From positions 1-64,000 of IMG/VR virus record IMGVR_UViG_3300042937_000216: a stretch of DNA of 64,000 bases. The stretch is one strand, 5' to 3'. The notes below the pieces were generated by a model. That model worked only from the letters and a program-made list of their open reading frames with translations. It made no database searches and was not told the origin of the DNA. This document shows, one piece after another, positions 43,740 to 50,531 of the stretch. Position numbers and translations under genes: made by a program. How positions within the stretch are numbered: position 1 is the first letter of the stretch; each line of letters starts with the position of its first letter. The DNA comes from a virus.

Positions 43740-44681
43740 ATGACTCTCAAACCTGTAAACGCACATCTTGACAGTGTTACCATCGGTGATGTTGAACTTC
43801 ACAAACTAATCACGACAGCAGAACTAGATAAAGATCTAAAGAATCTAGACAAGTTTGATGCTGAGTCTAACGCCAACAACTTTGCTGGCAATCCTTTCTT
43901 ATATCATTTTCAGTTTAAGAACTTATTAAACTGCCGTAGAAAAGATGGCAAGACCATATATGATATTTGGAACGATAAACCAGAGTGGGATAAGTTAATA
44001 GACAGCACACGTAAACGTAACCGAGGCGGGCGCACTGCCGCTGGCAATGTGTTTGAATGTTTCCGTATTAACCTAGGTAGTATTGTGATGTTCAAAGCAA
44101 CTACTGCCAAGTATCTTTATAAGAAGTACAATGCTACTAGTGTCTTAGATCCAACAGCAGGATGGGGCGGAAGACTATTAGGTGCTTGGAGTTTAGGCAT
44201 AGACTATACAGGCATTGACACTAACGTGGAAATGAAACCTGCGTATGAGAATATGATCACATTCTTAGATGAGTATACAGGATTTAAGAATAAGAATTTC
44301 AAAGTTGAACGTAACGGACAGCGCCAAATGATATGGGATAGCTGTTTAGCAGTAGACTTTAGTAAGTTGGACTACGACTTTGTATTGACTAGTCCGCCAT
44401 ACGTTAATTTAGAACTGTATGAACACATGACTCCTTGGGAAAAGGATGAAGACTTTTATACTAACTTCTTTATTCCCTTGTGGGCAAAATGTTGTAAGCA
44501 TATTAAACAGGGCGGCAACGTTGCGTTTAACATTAGTCCTAAGATGTATGAAGATGCGCTCAAGCATGGACTAACACCTTGTGATGAGGAAGAAGACCTA
44601 CTACAACAAATGGGTCAGAAGAAAGAGCTGTTGACCACAGGCAAAAAGAAACACGATAAGATTTATATTTGGCATTGTTAA
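43740..44681 (+). CDS. DNA amino-methyltransferase (N4-C/N6-A)
   Basis: Motif I LDPTAGWGG followed by motif IV TSPPY; TTGTAA-17-TATAAT promoter at 43706-43734. Confidence 0.85.
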   Translation: MTLKPVNAHLDSVTIGDVELHKLITTAELDKDLKNLDKFDAESNANNFAGNPFLYHFQFKNLLNCRRKDGKTIYDIWNDKPEWDKLIDSTRKRNRGGRTAAGNVFECFRINLGSIVMFKATTAKYLYKKYNATSVLDPTAGWGGRLLGAWSLGIDYTGIDTNVEMKPAYENMITFLDEYTGFKNKNFKVERNGQRQMIWDSCLAVDFSKLDYDFVLTSPPYVNLELYEHMTPWEKDEDFYTNFFIPLWAKCCKHIKQGGNVAFNISPKMYEDALKHGLTPCDEEEDLLQQMGQKKELLTTGKKKHDKIYIWHC

Positions 44682-44689
44682 AATAATAG

Positions 44690-44790
44690 TTGACAATGAC
44701 ACAAAAAGGCCATATAATATACATATATTTTAAGTAAGACATAAATAAATTAACAAACAGGTTGACAGGCTAATAAATAGACTGTATAAT
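44690..44790 (+). promoter_or_regulatory. Tandem sigma70 promoters (44690-44718, 44762-44790) plus late TAAATA box, heading the tRNA region
   Basis: Two perfect TTGACA-17-TATAAT; CATAAATA at about 44740. Confidence 0.85.
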
Positions 44791-44833
44791 AGTTTTTATA
44801 GTAAGAAATTAATTAAAGGAATGCGAAAGCAAA

Positions 44834-44965
44834 ATGTTTAACCAGCTACATCAATTTAAAATATCGAAACAAGTGTGCGCACTTGCCACGATGTCTTATT
44901 GGTCAGCGATTGAGACATTAGGCAATGATCGCACACCGAATAGTATCTATGGGGATCTTAGTTAG
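44834..44965 (+). CDS. Putative attenuator leader peptide, 43 aa, containing all 20 amino acids
   Basis: MFNQLHQFKISKQVCALATMSYWSAIETLGNDRTPNSIYGDLS*. Lies between the promoter and terminator; AAGGA 13 nt upstream. Confidence 0.7.
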   Translation: MFNQLHQFKISKQVCALATMSYWSAIETLGNDRTPNSIYGDLS

Positions 44966-45010
44966 AGTTTATATATAATATAAATGAATTTTAATTAAGA
45001 ACCCTAAGAT
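44945..45010 (+). promoter_or_regulatory. Antiterminator hairpin
   Basis: 44956-44972 pairs with 44984-45000 (17 bp incl. G-U), extended by UGGGG/CCCUA and AUCU/AGAU. It sequesters the terminator 5' arm. Confidence 0.7.
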
Positions 45011-45035
45011 CGAAAGACTTAGGGTTTTTTGTTTT
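45000..45035 (+). terminator. Intrinsic terminator (attenuator)
   Basis: aaccctaag-a-tc-GAAA-ga-cttagggtt followed by ttttgtttt. Confidence 0.85.
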
Positions 45036-45246
45036 ATGTGTCTCGGAAACGAGGTCCAGGCAAGGCACATTAAAGATAGTATGTTAAACGGGCGGACAAG
45101 TGGATGGCATGTTCTTATGTGAACAGAAAATACTTGTTATAATAAAGTACATTAATTGGCAACTAGGTCCCACGCAATGTGGATTATGTCAGAGGCGAGT
45201 AATTAGTGTGCTTTATTATACGCATTCATATGAGTGCGTTAACAGT

Positions 45247-45329
45247 TTGTAGATAGTCCTGTTGGGCCAGGAGCCTAGCCATGCTAGGTCAAGATCGCAA
45301 CTTGTTGGGTTCGATTCCCAGTCTACAAT
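45247..45329 (+). ncRNA. tRNA-like RNA (8/4 or 7/5 fold, long variable arm, aberrant CAU anticodon loop, no encoded CCA)
   Basis: Stems TTGTAGAT/GTCTACAA, TCCTG/CAGGA, CCTAGC-cat-GCTAGG, CAAG/CTTG, TGGG-TTCGATT-CCCA. Confidence 0.6.
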
Positions 45330-45383
45330 TTAACACGGCTCCTATCTATTGCCTACAGGGATAGCTTAGGAGTTATTTTATAA

Positions 45384-45462
45384 CTCAGTGTCGTATAGCC
45401 AGGCCTATTATGCGTGCTTTGGGAGCATGAGATCGTTGGTTCGAATCCAACCACTGAGACCA
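45384..45462 (+). tRNA. tRNA-Pro(UGG)
   Basis: Cloverleaf, loop TTTGGGA, CCA end. Confidence 0.9.
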
Positions 45463-45469
45463 AGTTTAT

Positions 45470-45554
45470 GGAGGTGTAGGAAAATTGGTAACCCCAGCGG
45501 ACTGTAAATCCGCCGCCCCTGGCATTGTTGGTTCAAGTCCAACCGCCTCCACCA
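45470..45554 (+). tRNA. tRNA-Tyr(GUA)
   Basis: Loop CTGTAAA, variable arm, CCA. Confidence 0.9.
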
Positions 45555-45560
45555 TATAAC

Positions 45561-45636
45561 GGAATGATAGCTCAATTGGTAGAGCAAGATGCTTTTAACG
45601 TCGAGGTTTAGGGTTCAAGTCCCTATCGTTCCACCA
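45561..45636 (+). tRNA. tRNA-Lys(UUU)
   Basis: Loop CTTTTAA, CCA. Confidence 0.9.
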
Positions 45637-45641
45637 GTAAT

Positions 45642-45719
45642 GGTCTGTTAGAATAGTTGGCCTACTTCGCCTGCCTGTCACGTAGGAGATCACGGGTTCG
45701 AATCCCGTACAGACCGCCA
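45642..45719 (+). tRNA. tRNA-Asp(GUC)
   Basis: Loop CTGTCAC, G73, CCA. Confidence 0.9.
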
Positions 45720-45727
45720 AAAAGATG

Positions 45728-45756
45728 TTGACAACTAACAATATAGAATATATAAT
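45728..45756 (+). promoter_or_regulatory. Internal sigma70 promoter in the tRNA array
   Basis: TTGACA-17-TATAAT. Confidence 0.85.
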
Positions 45757-45771
45757 AGTTGTATAGTTAAT

Positions 45772-45846
45772 AGCGGGGTGGGGAAGTGGCAACCCGTCGG
45801 GCTCATAACCCGAAGATCGGCAGTTCGAATCTGTCCTCCGCAACCA
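45772..45846 (+). tRNA. Initiator tRNA-fMet(CAU)
   Basis: 1-72 mismatch, GGG/CCC anticodon stem, loop CTCATAA. Confidence 0.85.
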
Positions 45847-45851
45847 GTAAT

Positions 45852-45927
45852 GCCGGATTAGCTCAGTTGGTAGAGCAGCGCACTTGTAATGCGAAGGTCG
45901 TCAGTTCGATTCCGACATCCGGCACCA
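45852..45927 (+). tRNA. tRNA-Thr(UGU)
   Basis: Loop CTTGTAA, CCA. Confidence 0.9.
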
Positions 45928-45933
45928 GTTTAG

Positions 45934-46009
45934 GCTCCCATCGTCTAGAGGCCTAGGACACCCGCCTTTCACGCAGGTAACACGAGTTCGAATCTCGTTG
46001 GGAGTACCA
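45934..46009 (+). tRNA. tRNA-Glu(UUC)
   Basis: Loop CTTTCAC, CCA. Confidence 0.9.
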
Positions 46010-46014
46010 AACAT

Positions 46015-46099
46015 GCCTCTGTGGTGGAATTGGTATACACGCTGGTCTTAGAAGCCAGTGCCGAAAGGCTTGAGAGTTCGAGTCTCTCCGGGGGCACCA
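46015..46099 (+). tRNA. tRNA-Leu(UAG)
   Basis: Loop CTTAGAA, variable arm, CCA. Confidence 0.9.
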
Positions 46100-46102
46100 A
46101 AT

Positions 46103-46176
46103 GCGGGATTAGTATAATGGTATTATGACAGCCTTCCAAGCTGATGACGAGGGTTCGATTCCCTTATCCCGCTCCA
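46103..46176 (+). tRNA. tRNA-Gly(UCC)
   Basis: Loop CTTCCAA, U73, CCA. Confidence 0.9.
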
Positions 46177-46179
46177 AAC

Positions 46180-46385
46180 ACTAGCTTTACACTTTGCGCT
46201 TTATCGAAAGTGGGTTATTGCCAATACCATAACGGCAGGGTACACACGATGGTCTAGACCATACCACAAGTCCCATTGCCGGGAGCCTTGAAAGTATCGT
46301 GGGTGTTTTACTGTTTTTAACCACAAAGCAAACAGGCGGACAGGGTAACTACTCAATCTAGGGCCAGGTGGTGCTGGTAGCTAGT
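46180..46385 (+). ncRNA. Candidate structured ncRNA (~205 nt) between tRNA-Gly and tRNA-Ala
   Basis: Ends pair (ACTAGCT/AGCTAGT); several internal helices; no ORF in the track. Confidence 0.5.
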
Positions 46386-46393
46386 CCTTACAC

Positions 46394-46469
46394 GGGGGTG
46401 TAGCTCAGTTGGGAGAGCGCATGCTTTGCAAGCATGATGTCGCAAGTTCGATCCTTGTCACCTCCACCA
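46394..46469 (+). tRNA. tRNA-Ala(UGC)
   Basis: G3-U70, loop TTTGCAA, CCA. Confidence 0.9.
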
Positions 46470-46476
46470 TACAATA

Positions 46477-46551
46477 GGACGGTTAGCTCAGCGGTAGAGC
46501 AGGGCCCTTACAAGGCCAAGGTCAAAAGTTCAATCCTTTTACTGTCCACCA
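46477..46551 (+). tRNA. tRNA-Val(UAC)
   Basis: Loop CTTACAA, CCA. Confidence 0.9.
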
Positions 46552-46558
46552 AGTTTAT

Positions 46559-46633
46559 TCCGAAGTAGCGTAGCGGTAGCGCAGAAGACTGTTAATCTTT
46601 TGGTCGGTGGTTCGATCCCACCCTTCGGAGCCA
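46559..46633 (+). tRNA. tRNA-Asn(GUU)
   Basis: Loop CTGTTAA, CCA. Confidence 0.9.
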
Positions 46634-46641
46634 TTTTAAAT

Positions 46642-46716
46642 AGTCTGTTAGCTCAGCGGTAGAGCAGGGTGTTGATAACGCCAAGGTCAGTGGTTCAATC
46701 CCACTACGGACTACCA
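46642..46716 (+). tRNA. tRNA-Ile(GAU)
   Basis: Loop TTGATAA, CCA. Confidence 0.9.
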
Positions 46717-46750
46717 ATTAAGTTGTTCTTTTCAATCAAAGGTGAATACT

Positions 46751-47221
46751 ATGAAAAAACTAGACATAAACCAAGTGCGTGACTTTATTCAAGCACAAAG
46801 TCTAGAAACCAAAGTCTACATTGGTGGTGACAGTCGACGTTTCCGTAAGAACGGACAATGGCATGCTGAATATACCTTGGCTATTGTAGTACACATTGAT
46901 GGGAAACATGGCTGTAAGATCTTTGGTGAAAGTAGTACTGAAGTGGACTACGATCAAAAACGTAGTCGCCCAAGTATGCGCCTAATGAACGAAGTCTACA
47001 AAATTAGTGAACTGTACTTAAAGCTACACGAAGTATTAGAAGACCGTGAAGTTGCTGTACATTTGGACATTAACCCAAACGAACTACATGGCTCAAGCTG
47101 TGTAGTACAACAGGCTATTGGTTATATCCGCGGAACATGTAACGTTATTCCAATGGTTAAACCAAACGCCTGGGCAGCTAGTTATGCGGCTGATCGTTTA
47201 AAAGAAATTATAGCAGCATAA
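46751..47221 (+). CDS. RNase H-fold YkuK/DUF458-like protein
   Basis: VYIGGDS, RLMNEV..., VHLDIN..GSS, KPNAWAASYAAD. Confidence 0.75.
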   Translation: MKKLDINQVRDFIQAQSLETKVYIGGDSRRFRKNGQWHAEYTLAIVVHIDGKHGCKIFGESSTEVDYDQKRSRPSMRLMNEVYKISELYLKLHEVLEDREVAVHLDINPNELHGSSCVVQQAIGYIRGTCNVIPMVKPNAWAASYAADRLKEIIAA

Positions 47222-47228
47222 GTTTAAT

Positions 47229-47303
47229 TGGGGTATGGTGTAATTGGCAACACAACACACTTTGACTGTGTCGTTTCAAGTTCGAGTCTTGATACCCCTG
47301 CCA
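47229..47303 (+). tRNA. tRNA-Gln(UUG)
   Basis: Loop CTTTGAC, CCA. Confidence 0.9.
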
Positions 47304-47305
47304 GT

Positions 47306-47550
47306 TTTGTTAGTGTGTGTACAGTAACCGTTATGTGACTATAGATTATACTTAATCCTTCTATAGTGTACCCGATGTCTGTAGCAACATATCTTAGGAT
47401 ATGTCTGTTGGTGAATTAAGTGTAGTCAACGACTAACAAATTTAAACAGTATCGGCCACGCCTCTTAACAATGCGCAACATGGTAAGCTGGATTTACAGC
47501 TAAAACTTGAGGACGCTCAAGGCTTCGGTCTTCCGGTGGGATAACCACCA
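47306..47550 (+). ncRNA. Candidate structured ncRNA(s) between tRNA-Gln and tRNA-Trp
   Basis: Rod closed by TTTGTTAGT/ACTAACAAA, followed by a three-hairpin unit. Confidence 0.45.
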
Positions 47551-47556
47551 ATCTAT

Positions 47557-47632
47557 TCCGGTGTAGTGTTAACGGCTAGCACGATGGTCTCCAAAACCAC
47601 AAGACGCGGTTCGAATCCGTGCACCGGAGCCA
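47557..47632 (+). tRNA. tRNA-Trp(CCA)
   Basis: Loop CTCCAAA, CCA. Confidence 0.9.
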
Positions 47633-47707
47633 AACATAATTTGTACAGTATAATGTACAAAATACCCCAAAATTGTACAGGATACTGTACACTTTAATAT
47701 ATAAAAT

Positions 47708-47784
47708 GCAACGGTACCAGAGTGGCCTAATGGCAAGGACTGCAAATCCTTTGTACGTCGGTTCAAATCCGACCCGTTGCTCCA
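47708..47784 (+). tRNA. tRNA-Cys(GCA)
   Basis: Loop CTGCAAA, U73, CCA. Confidence 0.9.
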
Positions 47785-47789
47785 ATTAT

Positions 47790-47866
47790 AGAGATGTAGC
47801 ATAGTGGCCTAATGCACTTGCTTCATACGCAAGCTACCGTAGGTTCAAATCCTACCATCTCTACCA
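47790..47866 (+). tRNA. tRNA-Met(CAU), probably elongator
   Basis: Loop TTCATAC, paired 1-72. Met versus Ile2 identity is uncertain. Confidence 0.75.
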
Positions 47867-47867
47867 C

Positions 47868-47946
47868 GCCCCCATAGCTCAGTCTGGACTAGAGCATAAC
47901 GCTACGAACGTTAGTGTCGGAGGTTCGAATCCTTCTGGGGGCTCCA
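47868..47946 (+). tRNA. tRNA-Arg(ACG)
   Basis: Loop CTACGAA, CCA. Confidence 0.9.
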
Positions 47947-48028
47947 AATAAAATGTTACTGAGCAGTAATATTTGCCGTCAAACCCGGCTAAATCAGTTC
48001 AAATATTACTGAGCAGTAAGATTAAAAT

Positions 48029-48103
48029 GCGGATATAGCGTAGCAGGAAACGCACGTGCTTGCCAAGCATGAGTCACGAGTTCGAATCTCGTTATCCGCT
48101 CCA
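48029..48103 (+). tRNA. tRNA-Gly(GCC)
   Basis: Loop TTGCCAA, U73, CCA. Confidence 0.9.
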
Positions 48104-48105
48104 AT

Positions 48106-48180
48106 GGTGTCTATAGTGTAGCGGCAACACTAAGGATTGTGATTCCTTCATCACGGGTTCGAACCCCGTTAGACACCCCA
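48106..48180 (+). tRNA. tRNA-His(GUG)
   Basis: G-1:C73, loop TTGTGAT, CCA. Confidence 0.9.
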
Positions 48181-48181
48181 C

Positions 48182-48210
48182 TTGACAAGTCAACCAAATG
48201 ACTGTATAAT
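48182..48210 (+). promoter_or_regulatory. Sigma70 promoter
   Basis: TTGACA-17-TATAAT with ATG 7 nt downstream. Confidence 0.85.
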
Positions 48211-48216
48211 ACGCTT

Positions 48217-48459
48217 ATGAATGATGAAGAACAATTAGCATGGGACATATTAAGCACGCCAAATAATGCGGACTTTAAGAATTATCGCAGACAGCATCGT
48301 ATGACATGGTTAACCAAAGACCGTAAGATATTGTTGATCAGAGACATGGAAACAGCACACATCATAAGTTGCGTTAATATGTTAGAAGCATTGGGGCAAG
48401 AAGAAACCTTGGCCTATAATGGCCTAATAGATGAACTAAGAAAGCGAGGACAAGAATAA
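48217..48459 (+). CDS. Hypothetical protein
   Basis: ORF at the predicted start site; WLTKD...IRDMETAHI motif. Confidence 0.6.
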   Translation: MNDEEQLAWDILSTPNNADFKNYRRQHRMTWLTKDRKILLIRDMETAHIISCVNMLEALGQEETLAYNGLIDELRKRGQE

Positions 48460-48842
48460 TGGACTTTACCATTGACTCAGAGTACTTAACAGATGTAACA
48501 ATTCGCAAAGAATGGAACACTTATACACAGAATGGTCGCGTACCAACTAATGAAGAACTTATTTTAATTATTCAAGGTAAAGGTGTGTGTTCAACTACAC
48601 ACTCAGAAGACCATCCGGAGTTTGCTAAGTTGCGTGAGCAGTTAGGCGAGTTGGGTTATATTGAGATTCAACGCAGTTGGTGGAATGGAGATAGAGTTCT
48701 AAAGCCGTTCAAACTTAACGGCAGAAAGTTCAAAGAGGGTGATCAGTTTAGTTGTGGTAGTGCAATGGGTAATCATCTTATTGTACGTGCCAAACACCCG
48801 GAATATTATAAGGATGAATACGATGATGAAACCATGGATTGA
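48459..48842 (+). CDS. Hypothetical protein
   Basis: GAGGA RBS; coupled to the upstream ORF. Confidence 0.6.
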   Translation: MDFTIDSEYLTDVTIRKEWNTYTQNGRVPTNEELILIIQGKGVCSTTHSEDHPEFAKLREQLGELGYIEIQRSWWNGDRVLKPFKLNGRKFKEGDQFSCGSAMGNHLIVRAKHPEYYKDEYDDETMD

Positions 48843-49242
48843 AAATATTAGTCTTGATGATGTGCGTAAAGGATATCACTACGACCCAGGTTTCAACAGT
48901 ATGCTAATACAGATTGTAGATCCTGGTACAGAATTCCCAACACCTAAGTATGACTTCCACACTGTACGCCAGTTCTACTTCTTAGATGTAGAAGAAAGCG
49001 ATAGCGAAAAGTTTTACTATGCGGCAGCCATTACCAATGAAGATGCTAAAGGTATTGCTAACGCATTAAAAGAAGCATGGGAACAGAGTATGAACGTAGT
49101 GGTACACTGCCACATGGGTGTAGCACGTAGTGGAGCAGTAGCAGAAGTAGGACAAATGATTGGGTTTAGAGATACAGAGAAATTCCGTGTTCCAAACCTA
49201 ATGGTCAAACACAAGCTAATGCACTATTTAGATTTAGTTTAG
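48826..49242 (+). CDS. Cys-based (PTP/dual-specificity-like) phosphatase
   Basis: VVHCHMGVARS = HCx5R loop. Confidence 0.8.
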   Translation: MKPWIENISLDDVRKGYHYDPGFNSMLIQIVDPGTEFPTPKYDFHTVRQFYFLDVEESDSEKFYYAAAITNEDAKGIANALKEAWEQSMNVVVHCHMGVARSGAVAEVGQMIGFRDTEKFRVPNLMVKHKLMHYLDLV

Positions 49243-49245
49243 AAT

Positions 49246-49321
49246 GCCACCTTAGCTCATCTGGTAGAGCACATGTTTGAAGCACATGGTGTGCCTGGTT
49301 CAAGTCCAGGAGGTGGCACCA
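49246..49321 (+). tRNA. tRNA-Phe(GAA)
   Basis: Loop TTGAAGC, CCA. Confidence 0.85.
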
Positions 49322-49334
49322 AGTTTGGAAGAAA

Positions 49335-49495
49335 GCCGGTACATTATGTATTCGAGGTTAGGAGAGACCGGCAAACCGTCCATATAAAGACCAGACCTCA
49401 ATCTCGTTAAGAGACAATTCTGGTTCCGCTGACGCGAAAAGAGGATGGGCTGCGCTCACGGGGTTTGTTAGGTTCCTGACACATGAATACCTAAC
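49335..49495 (+). ncRNA. Candidate structured ncRNA between tRNA-Phe and tRNA-Ser
   Basis: Helices GCCGGT/ACCGGC, CCGTCC/GGATGG, ACCAGA/TCTGGT, GTTAGGT/ACCTAAC. Confidence 0.5.
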
Positions 49496-49503
49496 ACTAA
49501 CAT

Positions 49504-49591
49504 GGAAGTTACTGAGGTCGGCTCCTCACACAGTCTTGAAAACTGTAGTTACCAGGAATGGTAAATCGTTCGATGCGATTAACTTCCGCCA
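49504..49591 (+). tRNA. tRNA-Ser(UGA) with 8/4 acceptor/T-stem fold
   Basis: GGAAGTTA/TAACTTCC, ATCG/CGAT, long variable arm, loop CTTGAAA, G73, CCA. Confidence 0.8.
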
Positions 49592-49596
49592 AATAC

Positions 49597-49625
49597 TTGA
49601 CACTGTCGGCAAACGGTGTTATAAT
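49597..49625 (+). promoter_or_regulatory. Sigma70 promoter for the last tRNA block
   Basis: TTGACA-17-TATAAT with extended TG. Confidence 0.85.
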
Positions 49626-49645
49626 AGTTGTATAGTAAGAAATTA

Positions 49646-49735
49646 GGAGAGTTGGCCGAGTGGTCGAAGGCAGCGGCTTGCTAAGCCGTCCTCCCAGTAA
49701 TGGGAGCATAGGTTCGAATCCTATACTCTCCGCCA
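49646..49735 (+). tRNA. tRNA-Ser(GCU)
   Basis: Loop TTGCTAA, variable arm, CCA. Confidence 0.9.
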
Positions 49736-49745
49736 AGATTAAGTA

Positions 49746-49821
49746 GGGCCGATAACTCACTCGGCGAGAGTACTGTGCTCATAACGCAGAAGGCAGGGAT
49801 CATAACCCTGGCGGCCCACCA
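49746..49821 (+). tRNA. tRNA(CAU), probably Ile2, with atypical T-loop
   Basis: GGGCC start, loop CTCATAA, A73, T-loop ATCATAA. Confidence 0.7.
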
Positions 49822-49822
49822 A

Positions 49823-49907
49823 GCGACTGTGGAGAAACTGGTATACTCATCAGACTTAAAATCTGACGCCGCAGGGCATGGCGGTTCGACCCCGCCCAGT
49901 CGCACCA
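49823..49907 (+). tRNA. tRNA-Leu(UAA)
   Basis: Loop CTTAAAA, variable arm, CCA. Confidence 0.9.
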
Positions 49908-49913
49908 GACACT

Positions 49914-49988
49914 CCGGTGTTAGTTAAATGGATATAACAGGGGATTTCTACTCCCTAGTTGGGGGTTCGATTCCCTCACGCCGGACCA
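49914..49988 (+). tRNA. tRNA-Arg(UCU)
   Basis: Loop TTTCTAC, CCA. Confidence 0.85.
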
Positions 49989-50006
49989 TAACAACAAGGA
50001 AACAGT

Positions 50007-50264
50007 ATGTCAATAATACAAAATTATAATGTAGAAGAACAACTAACCGCCGCAGAAAATCGAGCAATTGAAAAACGTGAAGCAGACGAAATTATCAATA
50101 ATGCTATGAAAGAATTCTTAGCCAGCGGCGGAAAGATACAACAGATTGAGCGGGGAGTTAGCCAGCAAGCAGACGGCGCATCTTATGCAGCCTGGGGAGC
50201 AGCACGCAAAGCAGGTCGCCCAACAACAGATACGACAGCTTCAATAGCAGACCTTAACAAATAA
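50007..50264 (+). CDS. Small hypothetical protein
   Basis: AAGGA RBS; EFLASGGKIQQI motif. Confidence 0.65.
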   Translation: MSIIQNYNVEEQLTAAENRAIEKREADEIINNAMKEFLASGGKIQQIERGVSQQADGASYAAWGAARKAGRPTTDTTASIADLNK

Positions 50265-50282
50265 TATAAAAGGTAATACTAT

Positions 50283-50531
50283 ATGAAATTTACCCTAGCA
50301 GAAATTATTGAATTAGCTAAAGAAGTAGAACTTAGCGATGAAATCGATTGGGACGATTTGCCCTTAGATAAAGATCGCATCTACCAAATCATTGGTAGTC
50401 AAACCTATGAGCTATACCAAGAGTATGCTCTGTCAGAAAACGGTGAAGCTATACTCTTAGCCACCATCACAAAGTTGTTGATCGAAAACTTCGTATTGAA
50501 TTTACGTGTGCGAGGCAACAACGTCTTATAA
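50283..50531 (+). CDS. Small acidic hypothetical protein
   Basis: AAGG RBS, 82-aa ORF. Confidence 0.6.
   Translation: MKFTLAEIIELAKEVELSDEIDWDDLPLDKDRIYQIIGSQTYELYQEYALSENGEAILLATITKLLIENFVLNLRVRGNNVL

Follow-up and report, generated by a model that had tools for sequence, protein, structure and literature searches.

The leader ORF and its hairpins

The DNA analysed here, a 64,000-nucleotide (nt) stretch referred to as the window, comprises positions 1 to 64,000 of the 122-kb IMG/VR virus record IMGVR_UViG_3300042937_000216, and is also present in DNA runs labelled as lake-water metagenome. Within it, a consensus sigma-70-type promoter is followed by a 43-codon open reading frame (ORF), by two overlapping RNA hairpins and by a long array of tRNA genes. 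An earlier reading, made from the sequence only, had taken this arrangement for a leader-peptide attenuator that polls the whole tRNA pool and controls the array. All the elements which that reading listed were recovered at the same positions by the ORF list, a promoter scan, ARAGORN and folding. The leader and its presumed targets consist of the following features.

44762-44790, + strand: leader promoter, TTGACA-17-TATAAT, 12/12 match
44815-44820, + strand: Shine-Dalgarno-like AAAGGA, read from the sequence and kept in relatives, as is the ATG
44834-44965, + strand: leader ORF of 43 codons plus a TAG stop (44963-44965), from the ORF list, with the sequence quoted in the sequence-only reading
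44873-44936, + strand: stable structured block within the ORF, with the hairpin 44870-44885; dG -29.1 kcal/mol, z = -3.75 versus shuffles
44945-45010, + strand: antiterminator hairpin, in which the last codons and stop (44945-44972) pair with 44984-45010, including the terminator 5' arm; from folding and covariation
45000-45035, + strand: intrinsic terminator, stem 45000-45026, then TTTTTTGTTTT to 45035; RNAfold dG about -12.5 to -13.5 kcal/mol
45384-49988, + strand: 26 tRNA genes in an array that serves all 20 amino acids, presumed to be the targets of regulation; from ARAGORN and Rfam

Transcription from the leader promoter would begin near 44797, and the ORF starts 44 nt after the -10 box. 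The ORF encodes all 20 residue types with 33 distinct codons, the twentieth type (proline) first being reached at codon 35, just as had been read from the letters. Of the 25 decoding classes represented by the phage's own tRNAs, Arg-UCU is the only one that it does not use (24 of 25, P=0.2%). How often chance would yield such an ORF was a question the sequence-only reading had raised: with the codon usage of the genome, a 43-codon ORF holds all 20 residues in 0.98% of simulations, and 0.66% of the 43-amino-acid (aa) windows of real ORFs of the genome do so. The leader is the sole ORF with the full set among 157 ATG-initiated ORFs of 35-55 aa; when any start codon is allowed, it is one of two among 382.

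The end of the ORF forms one side of the switch. The alternative pairing of about 26 bp that had been proposed for this segment was confirmed as 44945-44972 with 44984-45010 (4+5+17 pairs), and it is the minimum-energy fold of 44940-45045. Over 44940-45036 the antiterminator state has an energy of -30.4 kcal/mol versus -27.2 kcal/mol for the terminator state (a difference of 3.2), with pair probabilities of 0.97 and 0.01, respectively; the hairpin of the 44945-45010 region is A+U-rich. A simple consensus scan misses the terminator because its stem has a bulge. The ribosome was then represented by a footprint that masks the first base of the A-site codon together with 15 nt on its 5' side and 14 nt on its 3' side. 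In this model, which is thermodynamic and not kinetic, the antiterminator forms with A-site codons 10, 20, 30, 33 and 35, and the terminator with codons 37, 39, 41 and 43 and with the stop. Codon 35, the proline codon that completes the amino acid set, is the last modelled codon at which the antiterminator forms (codon 36 lies outside the set run). The region folds well overall (z = -5.3), and the full 249-nt fold has the terminator formed alongside an implausible long-range helix.

Conservation in close relatives

Megablast found no close relatives of the leader in GenBank phages, and the sole blastn match in these phages was a 62-nt terminator stretch in LR756504.1. Relatives were reached in IMG/VR by way of the upstream methyltransferase gene, the terminator and a degenerate DNA pattern for codons 20-28, and consist of 29 stretches in 22 distinct contexts with 19 distinct peptides. 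The distant methyltransferase loci (L005-L027) are without a leader and mostly without an array. The comparison of related arrays which the sequence-only reading had called for gave an ORF that is open in 22 of 22 relatives, a peptide that is poorly conserved and an alternative pairing that is kept. The TTGACA box of the leader promoter is identical in all 22, and the second hexamer is TATAAT or TATACT.

Four simple indels were seen inside the ORF, each of 3 nt, and those in the 5' leader and the hairpin loop are of 1, 2 or 5 nt. Variable sites are spread as 18/19/20 over the three codon positions, and the distinct codon changes (12 synonymous, 41 non-synonymous) give no sign of purifying selection on leader residues in the 22 relatives. 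A frame that is kept while its residues are not therefore fits a leader read only for the act of translation, and from this pattern of change the ORF is expected to be translated for that act alone, its product being irrelevant. The constancy of codons 20-28 is uninformative, since these codons were fixed by the search pattern; for the same reason, an invariant core as a sign of RNA-level constraint was largely set aside. The single cysteine stands at four or five different positions among the variants, and in one lineage histidine is found at codon 36 instead of codon 6. The hairpin CAAGTG-TGCG-CACTTG, suggested earlier as a pause site, is present at 44870-44885, with a constant stem and a variable loop in most relatives and with stem changes in L034 and the L041-type leaders. 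On its modelled stability, the structured block around it (44873-44936) is a possible pause element.

Genes for tRNA consistently follow the leader. In all 16 contexts with at least 687 nt of downstream sequence, same-strand tRNAs are found 351-662 nt after the core motif, and the six contexts in which none was found have at most 484 nt of such sequence. The leader can also be internal to an array, since half of the 22 contexts (L040-L042, L047-L049, L051-L054 and L057, 11 in all) have tRNA-Met and tRNA-Arg(TCT) on its upstream side as well, at a distance of about 455-566 nt, or about 1170-1260 nt in L041.

The switch is conserved as structure. In all of the 20 contexts that could be folded, a nascent RNA ending ahead of the terminator 3' arm pairs the terminator ACCC with a run of G in the final codons, and this is achieved through three unrelated 3' modules, with the stop within the 5' strand of the hairpin. 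In a covariation alignment of 19 contexts (18 distinct rows), 84.2% of antiterminator cells are paired versus 31.8-54.3% when the structure is slid, a control that favours a structure taken from the window's own sequence. Six antiterminator pairs are changed on both sides, and the covariation score was reached by none of 500 shuffles. The terminator has 99.5% of its cells paired and three compensatory pairs, again with 0/500 shuffles as good.

Diverged and codon-matched leaders

More distant leaders were found through the adjacency of a terminator and tRNA genes, not through composition. Among 117 loci, the generic terminator pattern is followed by same-strand tRNAs in at least 11 places, and a scan for a short ORF, a terminator and a tRNA gave 46 distinct candidate peptides among the loci collected, some of them spurious overlapping frames. 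The diverged leaders are as follows.

L038: 41 aa, 20 residue types, then 26 tRNAs
L084: 44 aa, 20 residue types
L099: 32 aa from a GTG start, 20 residue types with the start Met counted
L110 and L222: 37 aa, 20 residue types with the start Met counted
L104: 39 aa, 20 residue types with the start Met counted
L259: 33 aa, 19 residue types
L141-type: 30 aa, 17-18 residue types
Four short leaders: 22-25 aa, 14-17 residue types

All 20 residues are thus found in seven very different types of leader of 32-44 codons among the matches listed, with a chance of 5.6e-4 to 1.2e-2 for each. The residue counts of L259, L141, L252 and L243 have chances of 0.011-0.037, and those of L248 and L237 of 0.37-0.45. 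Common short motifs suggest that the diverged leaders are probably distant homologues, and as judged by their sequences they are too different for completeness to have been simply inherited. At many such loci a gap of 8-40 nt separates the terminator hairpin from the start of the first tRNA, too little to fit a promoter; therefore, the leader promoter must be the tRNA promoter, and the terminator would silence the array unless it is overridden.

The overlap between antiterminator and terminator recurs in these leaders. Across 18 diverged leaders, cognate antiterminator duplexes have a mean of -17.7 kcal/mol versus -11.8 kcal/mol for non-cognate ones (0 of 20000 permutations as good, P=5e-5). 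The leader's own partner is the best of all in 8 cases and among the best two in 12, and positions -34 to +7 relative to the stop always enclose the upstream antiterminator strand. Sequestration of the terminator arm is stronger in leaders than in 115 controls whose arms have the same CCCTAR pattern (mean fraction 0.62 versus 0.37; Mann-Whitney P=5e-4), with a sequestered fraction of at least 0.6 in 11/18 leaders versus 33/115 controls. A duplex test with the short terminator arm alone had low power (P from 0.002 to 0.87) and was replaced by the nascent-fold and the cognate/non-cognate tests.

Three further observations concern these leaders. The motifs GCGATTG and ATCGCACACC (44906-44939 in the window) are common to the window's family and, with their order swapped, to the very different leaders L259 and L099, the second motif being reduced to ATCGC in L099; a GCGAU/AUCGC stem is possible in either order. 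The short leaders L237, L243, L248, L252 and L141 (group 2) are probably leaderless mRNAs, because they start 5-8 nt after a TATAAT-like box. The same leaders are preceded by a gene for a 167-aa HExxH protein with resemblance to WLM/SprT-like proteases, which is also found in T4-like phages (Melnitz, Cr30, DLP_6 and others). In three records of T4-like phages examined, this gene was not seen beside a tRNA array, and blastn with two of the group 2 leaders found no matches.

The whole sequence of LR756504.1, an uncultured phage of 636 kb and 26% G+C with its tRNAs in blocks, was examined for leaders of this kind. A terminator ending in GGG, T6-8 and GTTTT is present in exactly four places, each with a short ORF before it and a tRNA block directly after it.

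MTTIIRNMNNNINRTRTTLGLSDKVLSFMKR: block Thr, Asn, Thr, Arg, Arg, Ile, Met; own-set residues 19/30; P=6.8e-5
MKTVNTNIAIVEIAVIGGAEEGVMGVYCLNSKTS: block Glu, Ala, Ile, Val, Gly, Glu; own-set residues 19/33; P=1.2e-3
MKNLTNIFWHFHFKATRRLGMENLYVS: block His, Phe; own-set residues 5/26; P=0.027
MKAMILSLCLSLSLSLQKLGVVGVCKVIS: block Leu, Leu, Ser, Cys, Ser, Ser, Leu, Leu; own-set residues 14/28; P=3.5e-5

Each of these leaders is enriched for the amino acids of its own block only (12/12 off-diagonal tests with P>0.3), with a Fisher combined P of 3.9e-10. Of all 2525 ATG-ORFs of 20-50 aa in the same phage, none matches the second leader, 23 match the fourth and 489 match the His/Phe leader, which by itself is weak evidence. 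The correspondence extends to codons: the Leu/Ser/Cys leader has four types of Leu codon, matching the four Leu anticodons in the block behind it, ATA accounts for three of four Ile codons ahead of a tRNA-Ile(TAT), and AGA and CGC are found before Arg(TCT) and Arg(ACG). In at least one of these leaders, designated F, the regulatory codons fold against the antiterminator strand, as in trp. Like the leader of the window, those of LR756504.1 have a terminator of the form xCCC...GGG followed by TTTTTTGTTTT, a stop in or near the antiterminator strand and tRNAs directly after. Unlike it, they carry runs of the few amino acids of one block, whereas the window leader spans all amino acids and stands before a set of 26 tRNAs. 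As far as sequence comparison goes, these codon-matched leaders are the strongest support for reading the element as an attenuator.

The four leaders (near 135600, 222600, 309650 and 588400) are preceded by a common A+T-rich promoter-like region, before which A2, B and D have ATATATACGTT and F has only AAACGTTTACTATAATA. No leader of this kind was found at two other tRNA clusters of LR756504.1 (near 402435 and 461164); these share an AACTTTGTAAGGAAGTTTAA element, and their first genes are odd tRNA-like ones for which ARAGORN reports anticodons of two letters.

A probable attenuator for tRNA genes and its alternatives

The sequence features of the element, their conservation and covariation, and the thermodynamic switch that they form are matters of observation. 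Comparison has strengthened the attenuator reading through the kept frame, the covarying helices, the tRNAs that follow, the recurring amino acid alphabet, the leaders of LR756504.1 and the footprint model. We therefore assign a probability of roughly 70% to the element being a ribosome-mediated leader-peptide transcription attenuator that gates the phage tRNA array. Host RNA polymerase would start at the 44762 promoter and transcribe the 43-codon ORF. As long as the last seven or eight codons are free of the ribosome, these codons and the stop would pair with 44984-45010, the terminator 5' arm would be hidden and transcription would continue to the tRNAs. A ribosome that has reached about codon 37 or the stop would melt this hairpin, allowing the terminator to form and ending transcription at 45035. 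Codons 2-35 hold every amino acid and 24 of the 25 decoding classes served by phage tRNAs, so that slow decoding of almost any codon, due to a tRNA that is missing, uncharged or cleaved, should hold the ribosome back and raise tRNA transcription, while ample tRNA would shut the array down. As read from these sequences, more tRNA is probably made when ribosomes decode slowly, and the window leader is best read as broad in spectrum and as belonging to a class in which narrow, codon-matched leaders are also found.

A bolder version can be envisioned, in which the leader is a universal gauge of decoding capacity. The translation time of the ORF would set the transcription of a complete tRNA set, making a self-balancing homeostat that turns on when the host destroys or withholds any tRNA (by anticodon nucleases or starvation), and codon-matched attenuators on phage tRNA blocks would then make up a wider, undescribed class of which this homeostat is the general form. 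We hold this version tentatively, at slightly less than an even chance, and the link of the leader to anticodon nucleases is speculation.

Several observations weigh against these proposals. Translation of the ORF, coupling of polymerase and ribosome in time, and a response of read-through to tRNA supply are what we infer from the features described above. The spacing of 13 nt between AAAGGA and the ATG is long (a 5-nt deletion reduces it in L033). Each amino acid is polled by one to five codons and there are no codon runs, unlike in classical leaders, and no anti-antiterminator was found in the window leader (pairing with the antiterminator strand, P=0.62), for which reason read-through is expected when the leader is untranslated. 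Completeness of a single ORF is by itself only mildly unusual, because its chance is about 1% for one ORF. Nor is completeness strict, which qualifies what the sequence-only reading had foreseen for related leaders: 19 of the 22 relatives have all 20 residues, and 3/22 lack cysteine, the only residue missing. Within the modelled sensing window all 20 residues are found in 7/20 relatives, the others having 18-19 with Cys, His or Pro too near the stop; the more distant long leaders have 17-19 residue types within it. Of the earlier claim that the whole tRNA pool is polled, the very broad codon set stands, and the sensing of "any" tRNA is not strictly conserved.

The arrays add to these doubts. 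L040 and L042 have leaders without Cys yet arrays with tRNA-Cys, arrays without Phe and Val tRNAs still have F and V in their leaders, and in the L003 type a 13-tRNA array stands behind a leader with all 20 residues. A strict mirror, in which leader content equals array content, was rejected for the window's family on the grounds of L040 and L042; L048 has a leader without Cys and a complete array without tRNA-Cys. In the window, the spacer between the terminator and the first tRNA is 349 nt long and holds TGTTATAAT, and three 12/12 promoters lie inside the array, which means that part of the array can be made independently. Contigs from RNA libraries cover parts of 44736-45006 in 3/4 runs (two of three studies), and one from a relative links the leader to 45086-45227 with 225 other letters between. 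Such contigs, which cannot reveal 3' ends or ribosome occupancy and come from libraries in which DNA can occur, demonstrate at most that the leader region occurs in RNA libraries.

Some of these points could also be explained if the attenuator sensed general translation status (ribosome availability, inhibitors or host shut-off), the full alphabet being incidental. A leader without runs of any codon, expected read-through when untranslated, array content that leaders do not track finely and completeness within the modelled window in only 7/20 relatives all fit such a sensor, and inhibitor-responsive leaders that sense ribosomes are described for msrD, vmlR and bmrCD. On the other hand, an incidental alphabet would have to account for residue diversity that is saturated in seven diverged leader types among the matches listed, for the 24 of 25 decoding classes in the window leader (P=0.2%) and for the match of four LR756504.1 leaders to their own tRNA blocks, and we consider this explanation unlikely. 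An ordinary gene for a small protein (41-49 aa), with its own promoter and terminator, could also lie beside the tRNAs by chance, the hairpin being a 3' end structure. Such a gene would agree with the retention of the ORF in 22 relatives with a common core (MSYWSAIET...NDRTP) and with the promoter-like site after the terminator in the window. However, the search pattern itself accounts in part for the conserved core, the codon changes, even over codon positions, show no purifying selection on the peptide, covariation links the antiterminator to the ORF end, other leader types have a terminator abutting the first tRNA with no room for a promoter, and the LR756504.1 leaders mirror their tRNA blocks. 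A protein gene is thus a distinctly improbable account of the locus.

The least probable of the alternatives, to which we give very little credence, is a small non-coding RNA of about 240 nt that runs from promoter to terminator and in which the ORF is incidental. The good folding of the region and of its internal block, the RNA-library contigs over the leader and the finding of no synonymous change at six degenerate positions of the search pattern in 22 sequences would all be in keeping with such an RNA. Against it, indels are all of 3 nt inside the ORF but not outside, and an ORF with its stop in or next to the antiterminator strand is present in 18/18 diverged leaders. Furthermore, it matches no Rfam family: cmscan of 44000-50500 (E<=1) found no cis-regulator, T-box included, over 44790-45040, where the sole match was MicX at 18.7 bits versus a gathering score of 75.

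Similar systems are known. Leader-peptide attenuators are found in amino acid biosynthetic operons (trpL, hisL, leuL and pheL), and those of thrL and ilvL are multivalent. The element in the window has the promoter-proximal short ORF, the intrinsic terminator and the overlapping antiterminator of the trpL/hisL type. As in these attenuators (for pheL, PMC3082878), the position of the ribosome would decide the structure, and the stop lies about 65-70 nt before the T-tract. The window leader differs from this type in that its targets are phage tRNA genes and not biosynthetic enzymes, in that its 20 amino acids are represented by one to five codons apiece, with no single-codon run, and in that its signal would be general decoding capacity and not one amino acid; since no 1:2 anti-antiterminator was found in it, superattenuation is not expected. 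T-box riboswitches are likewise terminator/antiterminator switches that report tRNA charging and control translation-related genes, as is proposed here. A T-box recognises a single uncharged tRNA by direct binding, for which no ORF is required, and none was matched by Rfam in 44000-50500.

Other systems share parts of this arrangement. In the leaders of antibiotic-resistance genes (ermCL, msrD, vmlR and bmrCD), a ribosome stalled on a short ORF alters the downstream RNA structure; unlike in the window, these leaders respond to a ribosome-bound drug through a specific nascent peptide. The peptide of the window leader is unconserved outside the core, and composition is its notable feature. A long accessory tRNA array is also known from Anabaena sp. 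PCC 7120, in which the trn operon of 26 tRNA genes is silent until translation is impaired and rises in expression under translation stress, according to PMC8421152 and PMC10272220. Unlike what is proposed for the window, its control is at the promoter, through direct repeats and the repressor TrcR, and "leader peptide", "attenuat" and "terminator" do not occur as words in PMC8421152. Full-text literature searches, whose scope left out subscription-only papers, returned no account of leader-peptide control of tRNA genes. The type of mechanism is classical; the tRNA-gene target and the near-complete codon roster are new relative to what is in print.

The regulation of phage tRNA genes, and the reason why some phages have near-complete sets, are largely unknown. 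If the attenuator reading is true, it would extend the trp/his paradigm to tRNA-gene targets, the signal being the decoding of the codons which those tRNAs read. It would also constitute a direct feedback, in which the tRNAs that are made hasten the very ribosome whose arrival stops their transcription. The version with all amino acids would offer a simple model, open to testing, of how a shortage of any tRNA could be sensed, with a bearing on phage counter-measures to tRNA-cleaving host defences and on the infection of starved cells. Because the element is about 280 nt long and has consensus sigma-70 signals, it should be testable in laboratory strains, and it could serve as a compact reporter of decoding capacity.

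Other features surround the leader. Two further promoter-like sites flank it.

44690-44718, + strand: upstream sigma-70-type promoter, TTGACA-17-TATAAT, 12/12 match
45135-45143, + strand: extended -10-like site TGTTATAAT, a possible independent promoter, read from the sequence

The upstream promoter has an aligned TTGACA...TATAAT in two of five compared relatives (L033 and L034), and the other three differ. The possible extended -10 had been pointed out in the sequence-only reading, as had the internal 12/12 promoters at 45728, 48182 and 49597, and both the former and (by promoter scan) the latter were borne out. The TGTTATAAT site, between terminator and array, is conserved in L003, L028 and L034. 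It lies within 45036-45240, where about 100 nt 3' of the terminator are conserved in the window, L003, L028, L033 and L034 and are followed by TGTTATAAT; other relatives have a different module 3' of the same terminator. This conserved stretch may be a structured RNA or a second promoter region. It is followed by a tRNA-like stretch (45240-45330) with a GGTTCGATTCC T-arm and without an ARAGORN call, whose sole Rfam signal is a weak tmRNA T-arm match (45306-45320, 12.1 bits).

Upstream of the leader, a 313-aa ORF (43740-44681) has weak methylase matches, Eco57I and N6_N4_Mtase, both below the Pfam threshold. Relatives of this ORF are found at 49-89% identity in 29 IMG/VR loci, and a further one (L032) is 32% identical; most loci with such relatives have neither leader nor array. 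Within the array, a sub-threshold match to the Rfam abiF RNA (30.6 bits; gathering score 37) lies between tRNA-Gln and tRNA-Trp (47456-47483), and a 159-aa ORF (46742-47221) matches the RNase H-like Pfam family PF04308 (E=5e-15).

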